From the IMG/VR virus record IMGVR_UViG_2877251553_000002: 34,826 nt of DNA. One strand, given 5' to 3'. The notes under the pieces are model-generated. The model worked only from the letters and a program-made list of their open reading frames with translations. It was not told the origin of the DNA and searched no databases. Source of the stretch: a virus (taxonomy: Duplodnaviria > Heunggongvirae > Uroviricota > Caudoviricetes). Position numbers and translations under genes: made by a program. Shown piece by piece: positions 24,195 to 24,505 of this stretch; positions within the stretch are counted from its first letter, which is position 1; each line of letters begins with the position of its first letter.

Positions 24195-24269
24195 TGGAGC
24201 GGGCAGCGGGAATCGAACCCGCATCATCAGCTTGGAAGGCTGAGGTAATAGCCATTATACGATGCCCGC
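24195..24269 (-). tRNA. tRNA-Gly (anticodon UCC)
   Basis: Reverse complement GCGGGCATCGTATAATGGCTATTACCTCAGCCTTCCAAGCTGATGATGCGGGTTCGATTCCCGCTGCCCGCTCCA folds as a cloverleaf; glyT-like. Confidence 0.9.
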
Positions 24270-24272
24270 ATA

Positions 24273-24348
24273 TGGTGCCGACTACCGGAATCGAACTGGT
24301 GACCTACTGATTACAAGTCAGTTGCTCTGCCTGCTGAGCTAAGTCGGC
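24273..24348 (-). tRNA. tRNA-Thr (anticodon UGU)
   Basis: Reverse complement GCCGACTTAGCTCAGCAGGCAGAGCAACTGACTTGTAATCAGTAGGTCACCAGTTCGATTCCGGTAGTCGGCACCA; thrU-like with D-loop differences. Confidence 0.88.
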
Positions 24349-24350
24349 GC

Positions 24351-24427
24351 TGGCCCACCACCGAGGACTCGAACCTCGCACCGTCAACTTAGAAGGTTGA
24401 TGCTCTATCCGGATGAGCTAGTGGTGG
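24351..24427 (-). tRNA. tRNA-Arg (anticodon UCU)
   Basis: Reverse complement CCACCACTAGCTCATCCGGATAGAGCATCAACCTTCTAAGTTGACGGTGCGAGGTTCGAGTCCTCGGTGGTGGGCCA; 7-bp acceptor stem, anticodon loop CTTCTAA. Confidence 0.75.
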
Positions 24428-24428
24428 T

Positions 24429-24505
24429 TGGTGGCCCTTGCTGGACTTGAACCAGCGACCTGGCGATTATGAGTCGCTCGCTCTGACCAACTGAGCTAAA
24501 GGGCC
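24429..24505 (-). tRNA. tRNA with CAU anticodon (tRNA-Ile2-like, or Met)
   Basis: Reverse complement GGCCCTTTAGCTCAGTTGGTCAGAGCGAGCGACTCATAATCGCCAGGTCGCTGGTTCAAGTCCAGCAAGGGCCACCA; resembles ileX-type tRNA. Confidence 0.8.

Follow-up and report, generated by a model that had tools for sequence, protein, structure and literature searches.

Four transfer RNA (tRNA) genes lie packed beside a holin gene in the Caudoviricetes record IMGVR_UViG_2877251553_000002 of IMG/VR (34,826 nucleotides, the whole stretch being referred to below as the window), and the locus raises the question of what such a cassette does in a prophage. The most probable answer, given a probability of about 0.78, is that it is a lambdoid-prophage tRNA supplementation cassette of the slot that lies between Q/pR'-tR' and the holin gene in intact relatives. 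This reading is supported by the identity and intactness of the genes, their synteny, the conservation of a promoter motif and the codon bias of the phage genes. The initial annotation of this DNA had described four tightly packed tRNA genes, 1-3 nt apart, between a tR'-like terminator and the holin gene, and ARAGORN, Rfam, RNA folding and a PF04971 match agree on that arrangement.

Identity of the four tRNA genes

ARAGORN detected exactly four tRNA genes across the whole window, and the minus strand carries all of them. They are transcribed in the order Ile2(CAU), Arg(UCU), Thr(UGU), and Gly(UCC), and their order along the plus strand is the reverse of that listed in the initial annotation. 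The intergenic gaps in the direction of transcription are 1, 2, and 3 nt, and a 3' CCA is encoded in each gene. All four were called by ARAGORN and matched the Rfam tRNA family RF00005:

24429-24505, minus strand: tRNA-Ile2 (anticodon CAU; ARAGORN label Met/Ile2), the first gene of the cassette, 70.5 bits
24351-24427, minus strand: tRNA-Arg (UCU; reads AGA/AGG; C1-G72), 56.4 bits
24273-24348, minus strand: tRNA-Thr (UGU; reads ACA/ACG), 69.8 bits
24195-24269, minus strand: tRNA-Gly (UCC; reads GGA/GGG), 64.9 bits

The gathering score of RF00005 is 29, and the E-values of the four matches ranged from 1e-13 to 1e-9. The characteristics of functional bacterial tRNAs were found in all of them, including 7-nt anticodon loops (CUCAUAA, CUUCUAA, CUUGUAA, and CUUCCAA, respectively) with U33.

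The CAU gene had been described initially as Ile2-like, which the comparison with known genes bore out: it is identical to ileZ of phage 933W at 74/77 positions (96%), to K-12 ileY at 71/77 (92%), to ileX at 69/77, and to metT/metU at 54/78 (69%). Its acceptor stem, GGCCCUU/AAGGGCC, is the same as that of ileY, and that of metT is GGCUACG. The enzyme TilS reportedly tells tRNA-Ile2 from tRNA-Met by the acceptor-stem pairs C4-G69 and C5-G68, both of which are carried by the cassette tRNA. Since the body of the gene is ileY/ileZ-like and identical copies are annotated as tRNA-Ile in RefSeq, the 'Met' call of ARAGORN is the usual mislabel, and the gene is read as Ile2, its product being presumably lysidine-modified.

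The acceptor stem of the Arg(UCU) gene is formed by CCACCAC at the 5' end and GTGGTGG-G-CCA at the 3' end, and the unusual C1-G72 pair is therefore real. The possibility raised initially, that this pair would mark a pseudogene, is answered by the ARAGORN call, the Rfam score and the Rfam alignment, in which the gene folds as a standard cloverleaf and every stem pair is canonical. It is identical to 933W argN, which also has C1-G72 with the anticodon UCG, at 61/77 positions (79%) and to the host argU at 58/79; identical copies are annotated as tRNA-Arg in RefSeq. The tRNA carries A20, C35, and U36, which we take to be identity elements for ArgRS. By these features it can be regarded as a bona fide member of the argN family and a homologue of 933W argN.

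The Thr and Gly genes had been described as close relatives of host thrU and glyT, and they proved to be very close indeed. The Thr(UGU) gene matches K-12 thrU at 74/76 positions, both differences being T-to-C changes in the D-loop (C16/C20), and its anticodon arm, ACUGA-CUUGUAA-UCAGU, is that of thrU; the Gly(UCC) gene is identical to glyT (75/75). The claim of a non-host gene order, however, did not stand. The host tufB operon has the order thrU-tyrU-glyT-thrT, and the cassette therefore keeps the order of the host in having Thr ahead of Gly, minus tyrU and all spacers. Unlike the host operon, the cassette has neither tyrU nor thrT nor spacers of 8, 116, and 6 nt. No homology was found between the spacers and flanks of the cassette and those of thrU-tyrU-glyT-thrT, and capture together with host flanks was rejected on this ground. 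Judged from the sequences, the Thr and Gly genes derive from host thrU and glyT by capture, and the Ile2 and Arg genes belong to the phage ileZ/argN lineage.

Predicted promoter and terminator upstream of the cassette

Two predicted signals precede the first tRNA gene:

24515-24544, minus strand: sigma-70-type promoter TTGCAG-17 nt-TATTAT predicted by a consensus scan, 9 nt before the mature 5' end of tRNA-Ile2
about 24596-24628, minus strand: tR'-like intrinsic-terminator hairpin found by RNA folding, ~90 nt upstream of the cassette

The promoter motif, which was absent from the initial annotation, is conserved in the relatives. A sigma-70-like motif occurs at this fixed position in 38 of the 39 distinct 60-nt upstream sequences of the fetched loci, in comparison with 1.1% of shuffles, and its strict form (TTGCNN-17-TATYAT-9) was found in 34 of these 38. 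The columns of the hexamers are 87-97% conserved and the flanking columns 33-60%. In phage 933W the same element, TTGCAG-17-TATTAT at 9 nt upstream, is annotated at the equivalent place in the GenBank record as 'pT putative tRNA promoter'. With a predicted promoter of its own, the cassette may be an autonomous transcription unit, expressed independently of the lost Q.

The terminator consists of a GC stem (CCCGC/GCGGG) lengthened by A/U pairs and followed by U7. Its fold has a free energy of -18.9 kcal/mol with a z-score of -4.44, and none of 200 shuffles folded as well. A simple terminator scan missed this hairpin, probably because the A/U extension swallows the U-tract, and folding confirmed it. 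In the uninterrupted relative L002, the equivalent terminator lies ~80 nt downstream of a Q-like gene.

Synteny, relatives and cassette variants

A few Escherichia coli genomes have loci that match the stretch from holin gene to terminator at 98.5-99.6% identity, and in these it lies between a Q-type antiterminator gene and the holin gene; the close relatives are O121 strain 201805972, which also has an IS911 beside the holin gene, and FDAARGOS_943/944. The order Q, further open reading frames (ORFs) at some loci, cassette and holin gene is found in E. coli O121, FDAARGOS_943, APEC O1, and the sequenced phage PhiR47_1. Other genomes carry copies 100% identical to the 311-bp cassette, and RefSeq annotations of E. 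coli include it. Among 5,426 complete genomes of E. coli, 603 have a locus that covers 80% or more of the cassette, and in about 10 of these the identity is 99% or higher. An exact search with the junction of Ile2 and the second gene (slot 2) returned four copies in one Shigella flexneri genome, four in one E. coli genome, one in Yokenella regensburgei, and more than 120 IMG/VR contigs. Among the fetched loci, the window included, three compositions of the cluster prevailed, and rarer ones were present too:

Ile2-Arg(UCU)-Thr-Gly: 45 loci
Ile2-'Lys'-Thr-Gly: 44 loci
Ile2-[undetected slot 2]-Arg(UCU): 25 loci

The initial annotation had placed the cassette where Stx-type lambdoid phages carry ileZ-argN-argO followed by toxin genes, as the Stx2 phage 933W does with stx, and the intact relatives, which have it between Q and the holin S gene, support this. 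The 933W genes likewise follow Q, pR' and terminators and precede the lysis genes. An Ile2 gene comes first, an argN-type C1-G72 tRNA gene second and a pT-like predicted promoter directly upstream, as in the cassette. In contrast, slot 2 of 933W has the anticodon UCG, its third gene is argO (UCU), its spacers are 9 and 13 nt, and it has no Thr or Gly genes; in the window, UCU sits in slot 2 itself, followed by Thr and Gly. Moreover, stxAB, nanS-p and other ORFs separate the tRNA genes of 933W from its holin gene, whereas the window has a non-coding spacer of 292 bp. The further designation of the locus as a late-gene leader is right for the intact relatives and not for the window, which retains the holin gene and the terminator and in which Q/pR' are replaced by an IS911 and an integrase fragment.

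By far the more frequent form of the cassette in E. coli is Ile2-'Lys'(UUU)-Thr-Gly, 94-95% identical to that of the window and found in APEC O1, many other strains, and the phages PhiR47_1, vB_EcoS-689R5, and vB_EcoM-606R7. In APEC O1, PhiR47_1 and vB_EcoS-689R5 it has the same four slots, gene lengths, spacers of 1, 2, and 3 nt, downstream spacer and holin gene; it differs in the slot 2 loop CCUUUAA (UUU, with C33 for the near-universal U33) and the discriminator U73. Across the loci, slot 2 was found to be a single C1-G72 scaffold with a variable anticodon arm, and Ile2, Thr, and Gly are nearly invariant (e.g., L004 6653-6729, L016, L042, L027, and L033). Its forms are UCU (~50 copies, the window having the canonical form), UUU with C33 (~49), UCG (933W type), and one with no anticodon arm (~21); the ARAGORN calls 'Ser UGA' and 'Leu UAA' in this slot have 5-nt loops. 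In E. coli FDAARGOS_943 (L002 6476-6882), the cassette is decaying: the Thr anticodon stem is broken, and a 'Val'(UAC) call is the Gly gene with two anticodon-loop changes, a 1-nt deletion in the acceptor stem and CCA changed to CAA. The cassette is therefore eroding in some lineages.

Other tRNA genes in the same slot are known. They were reported downstream of Q in the lambdoid phages SfI, Sf6, ST64T, PS3, and phage 21 with a rare-codon explanation (PMC3636060). The Asn(GUU)-Thr(UGU) pairs of phage 21, SfI, Sf6, ST64T, and HK446 and the Asn-Thr-Gly set of phage JLK-2012 share the Q-to-holin slot and the Thr(UGU) gene with the cassette, and JLK-2012 also shares the Thr-3 nt-Gly arrangement, a module that stands alone in phi467 and an LT-IIb prophage. 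They differ in the partner tRNAs, and the Thr genes of phage 21 and HK446 are divergent and experimentally resistant to the nuclease Old, whereas that of the window is essentially host thrU. The Thr(UGU) gene of JLK-2012 (L142 4495-4570) has the first 25 nt of the Old-resistant HK446 gene (L147 5178-5253) and a thrU-like anticodon arm and 3' half, which suggests a chimera from recombination between phage-type and host-type Thr genes.

The full set of phage T4 comprises eight tRNAs, including Ile(CAU), Arg(UCU), Thr(UGU), and Gly(UCC), and all four anticodons of the cassette are represented among the tRNAs annotated in T4-like phages. The T4 cluster is likewise made of packed tRNA genes with multimeric precursors and serves A-ending, host-rare codons. 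Unlike the cassette, it belongs to a virulent myovirus, its Thr and Gly genes are only ~82% identical, and it has no relation to Q or a holin gene; the likeness in the choice of anticodons is convergent.

Codon usage and proposed function

The codon usage of the phage ORFs of the window, insertion sequence (IS) genes excluded, was compared with that of 38 K-12 core genes (14,057 codons) as within-family odds ratios:

AUA: 4.7 (p 2e-11)
AGA: 6.0
AGG: 10.9
ACA: 2.3
GGA: 2.0

Similar odds ratios were obtained for the O121 prophage and phage PhiR47_1, and AAA was not enriched. In the O121 prophage with the identical cassette, the five most enriched codons are AGA, AGG, AUA, GGA, and ACA, exactly those read by the four tRNAs; in the ORFs of the window, the same five rank 1, 2, 4, 6, and 9. 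The supplementation of rare codons (AUA, AGA) proposed in the initial annotation fits this comparison. The pattern is that expected under supplementation and supports it, as a correlation.

From these data we infer expression, processing, lysidine modification and any fitness effect of the cassette along the following lines. Transcription would start from the predicted sigma-70 promoter that precedes the first tRNA gene by 9 nt and, in an intact phage, would also come from pR' by read-through of Q-modified RNA polymerase. A single polycistronic precursor would be cleaved by RNase P at each 5' end and the 1-3-nt spacers trimmed by 3' exonucleases, the CCA ends being pre-encoded, as in T4 tRNA precursors. 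The products would add to four host tRNA pools on which the decoding of AUA, AGA/AGG, ACA, and GGA wholly or mainly depends; E. coli core genes use these codons rarely, and the phage genes use them 2-10 times more often. Since Q, pR', endolysin and head genes have been lost from this prophage, its own promoter would be the only possible driver here, and any benefit would now go to the host.

Several observations weigh against this reading. The match of codons and tRNAs is only a correlation, and any AT-richer DNA gained by horizontal transfer typically shows enrichment of this kind. CGG ranks third in enrichment in the ORFs of the window, yet no CGG-reading tRNA is present in the cassette. The commonest variant of the cassette has UUU ('Lys') in slot 2 though AAA is not enriched, and codon demand therefore does not explain every slot. 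Finally, the phage genes that should benefit are mostly destroyed in the window, so the cassette may be functionless here.

Holin gene and tRNA-holin spacer

Two features lie downstream of the tRNA genes:

23687-23902, minus strand: phage-21-type class II holin of 71 aa with a dual start MKSM (PF04971, phage 21 holin S, E-value 1.1e-35)
23903-24194, minus strand: non-coding structured spacer of 292 bp between tRNA-Gly and the holin gene, with inverted repeats and predicted stem-loops

The DNA of the holin region is 85.7% identical to that of phage 21, and near-identical copies (99.5% DNA identity) are annotated in RefSeq as 'class II holin family protein'. The absence of a cargo gene before the holin gene, noted initially, was corroborated: no conserved ORF was found in the spacer. 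The only candidate, an ORF of 38 aa (24017-24133), is cut to ~10 codons in divergent variants, is therefore not coding, and was rejected as a small protein.

The spacer contains the 14-bp inverted repeat mentioned in the initial annotation (24063-24076/24122-24135) and one of 11 bp (24143-24153/24178-24188), and it forms three conserved stem-loops (24143-24188, 24063-24135, and 24010-24064), the first two with fold z-scores of -3.9 and -3.8. All three stems are kept in an alignment of 12 variants, 3 distant ones of which lack the first hairpin, and the core GCACTCTGC...GGGTGGTTTGTTGGATAGAGTGC (60 nt) is invariant across the aligned variants. Of 59 predicted pairs, 2 show compensatory double changes, both in the 14-bp stem; such covariation is slender evidence and probably stems from one event in a single lineage. 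The distant variants have a clear intrinsic terminator at the end of the spacer.

An Rfam E-value scan of 23500-24700 returned only the tRNAs and sub-threshold chance matches (such as Trp_leader, and isrK over the terminator), and no known RNA family was found in the spacer or leader. The Pas small RNAs (sRNAs; PasA, PasC, and PasD), which lie next to prophage holin genes, were considered and rejected: fragments of PasA and PasD matched their own loci in E2348/69 and nothing in the window, and the spacer showed no similarity to the three Pas loci of that strain. The spacer may be a terminator or processing region of the tRNA transcript, or an undescribed small RNA.

State of the prophage

The tRNA-holin island of 961 bp is bracketed by inverted IS911 sequences:

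24639-25888, minus strand: full copy of IS911 with rve and HTH_Tnp_1 domains, 99.5% identical over ~1,250 bp to the annotated IS911 of the relative locus L001
22958-23677, plus strand: truncated IS911, of which 720 bp from one end remain, adjoining the stop codon of the holin gene and inverted relative to the full copy

The full copy was inserted ~10 bp upstream of the terminator stem and separates the cassette from Q/pR'. Read from the uninterrupted L002, the insertion point lies ~60 bp downstream of the Q-like gene and is followed by the terminator and then the cassette. The transposase frame of this copy extends beyond the IS, across the junction and into the terminator hairpin. The truncated copy forms an inverted repeat with 24702-25357 and is 99.7% identical to the IS911 of L001, where the same insertion occurs beside the holin gene. 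The transposase ORFs of the two copies (24586-25485 and 22929-23669) differ by an indel near their 3' ends.

Beyond the full IS911, an N-terminal integrase fragment, an IS1 fragment and an IS66-family element were found rather than Q. The integrase fragment (25889-26238, minus strand) is of the lambda type with weak Arm-DNA-binding and SAM-like matches, and it is cut by the IS911 on one side and by the IS1 fragment on the other; its presence where Q is expected points to a deletion or rearrangement brought about by IS elements. The Q regions of L001 and L002 were searched across the whole window in case an IS911-mediated inversion had moved Q/pR'; they matched nowhere, and relocation of this kind was rejected. 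Downstream of the truncated IS911, genes for a head-tail connector, a tail terminator and a sheath follow directly, and the endolysin, Rz, terminase, portal and capsid genes have therefore been deleted. The prophage is heavily degraded, and its late-gene leader survives in the window only as a remnant.

The tail-sheath-like gene (DUF3383; 16774-17909 and 20339-20701, minus strand) is in three pieces. The N-terminal piece (20339-20701) is split off by the IS66-family copy at 17942-20260, and the two downstream pieces (17103-17909 and 16774-17157) are adjoining ORFs, which suggests a further frameshift. The following IS copies were found in the window:

1-2348, 17942-20260, and 26352-28700: three IS66-family copies
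4461-5228 and 15833-16600: two IS1 copies, with a fragment at 26225-26356
22958-23677, 24639-25888, and 32970-34237: three IS911 copies, the first truncated
29671-30009: IS600 fragment
7215-8488: another IS3-family element

Such a very high IS load (about ten copies and fragments) is typical of a Shigella or Shigella-like E. coli lineage. At 30668-30857 (minus strand), matches to C4 antisense RNA (RF01695, 78.6 bits) and isrK (RF01394, 63.8 bits) lie side by side at the 5' end of an ORF with Rha/Ash domains (30068-30892); the arrangement looks like a c4-ant module similar to immI of P1/P7.

Alternative explanations

The degradation of the prophage invites the view that the cassette is an inert relic, unexpressed or useless, whose intactness means only that decay has still to reach it. 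The prophage lacks Q/pR' and its endolysin, terminase and head genes, IS911 copies lie on both sides of the 961-bp island, about ten IS copies or fragments are present, the sheath gene is split by IS66, and elsewhere the cassette is visibly decaying (the Gly gene of FDAARGOS_943 turned into a 'Val' pseudogene and its Thr stem broken; slot 2 without an anticodon arm). Yet in the window no damage is seen in the four genes, the promoter hexamers or the terminator while the neighbouring genes are destroyed, the 311 bp are 100% identical to the copies of other genomes, four copies are kept in one S. flexneri genome, and the cassette's own predicted promoter would free expression from the loss of Q. 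Taken together, these points make an inert relic possible but doubtful. Another view, that the tRNA genes are host genes marking the attB site of prophage integration and are no phage cargo, can be practically discounted. Although tRNA genes are common integration targets and a recent preprint interprets tRNA matches near prophage sRNA genes in this way, cassettes occupy the slot from Q to the holin gene within sequenced phage genomes (PhiR47_1, 933W, and HK446), a synteny that already refutes it. The four isotypes are also 1-3 nt apart, have no homology to host flanks, and occur in up to four copies per genome.

A role in counter-defence, with the tRNAs replacing host tRNAs destroyed by tRNA-cleaving immune nucleases (P2 Old, PARIS AriB, PrrC, and colicin D) of competing elements, deserves mention since P2 Old blocks phage lambda by amputating the anticodon arm of the host tRNA-Thr(UGU) and the Thr(UGU) of phage 21 protects against it (PMC12445682). 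In a 2026 preprint, Thr(UGU) and Gly(UCC) were the most depleted tRNAs, and rescue was achieved by the Thr(UGU) of the lambdoid phage HK446. A defence-evasion role of tRNAs of the Q slot is therefore real in some phages; HK446 has its Asn-Thr pair in the equivalent pR'-holin slot, Thr(UGU)-Gly(UCC) is a conserved module of the cassette, and the anticodon loop of slot 2 varies across loci. However, Old resistance has been traced to a change in the CNG motif or to shortening of the anticodon stem, and the host tRNA-ThrU protects little or not at all (PMC12445682; 2026 preprint). The protective HK446 Thr matches thrU at 55/76 positions only and has a different anticodon stem, whereas the Thr of the window has the exact host anticodon arm and the Gly is identical to glyT. 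The copies of the window should therefore be cleaved like those of the host. On sequence, the Thr gene was rejected as an Old-resistant tRNA-Thr(UGU) of the phage 21, HK446, or T4 type, and the Gly gene with it, which leaves counter-defence a very unlikely function of this cassette.

A joint reading would make the cassette domesticated rather than dead cargo, with slot 2 as a target or decoy in nuclease conflicts and the three-hairpin spacer as an undescribed small RNA. The idea of domestication builds on the stable-RNA-type promoter of the cassette, its intactness amid a destroyed prophage and the four copies in the S. flexneri genome; as a whole, this reading is speculative and rather improbable. 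Under it, the cassette could be retained for the supply of four single-decoder tRNAs (for AUA, AGA, ACA, and GGA) needed by AT-rich acquired virulence genes.

Significance

The arrangement is an ordinary one: it is widespread and already annotated, and tRNA genes downstream of Q in lambdoid phages have been published, so the cassette itself matters little as a discovery. Its use lies in annotation. The ARAGORN 'tRNA-Met' call is Ile2, and the Arg tRNA gene with C1-G72 is a genuine member of the argN family; tRNA matches in the Q-to-holin interval are phage cargo and not integration sites, and an anti-Old function should not be presumed for the host-identical copies of Thr and Gly. The variable anticodon of slot 2 and the structured spacer before the holin gene are modest leads.

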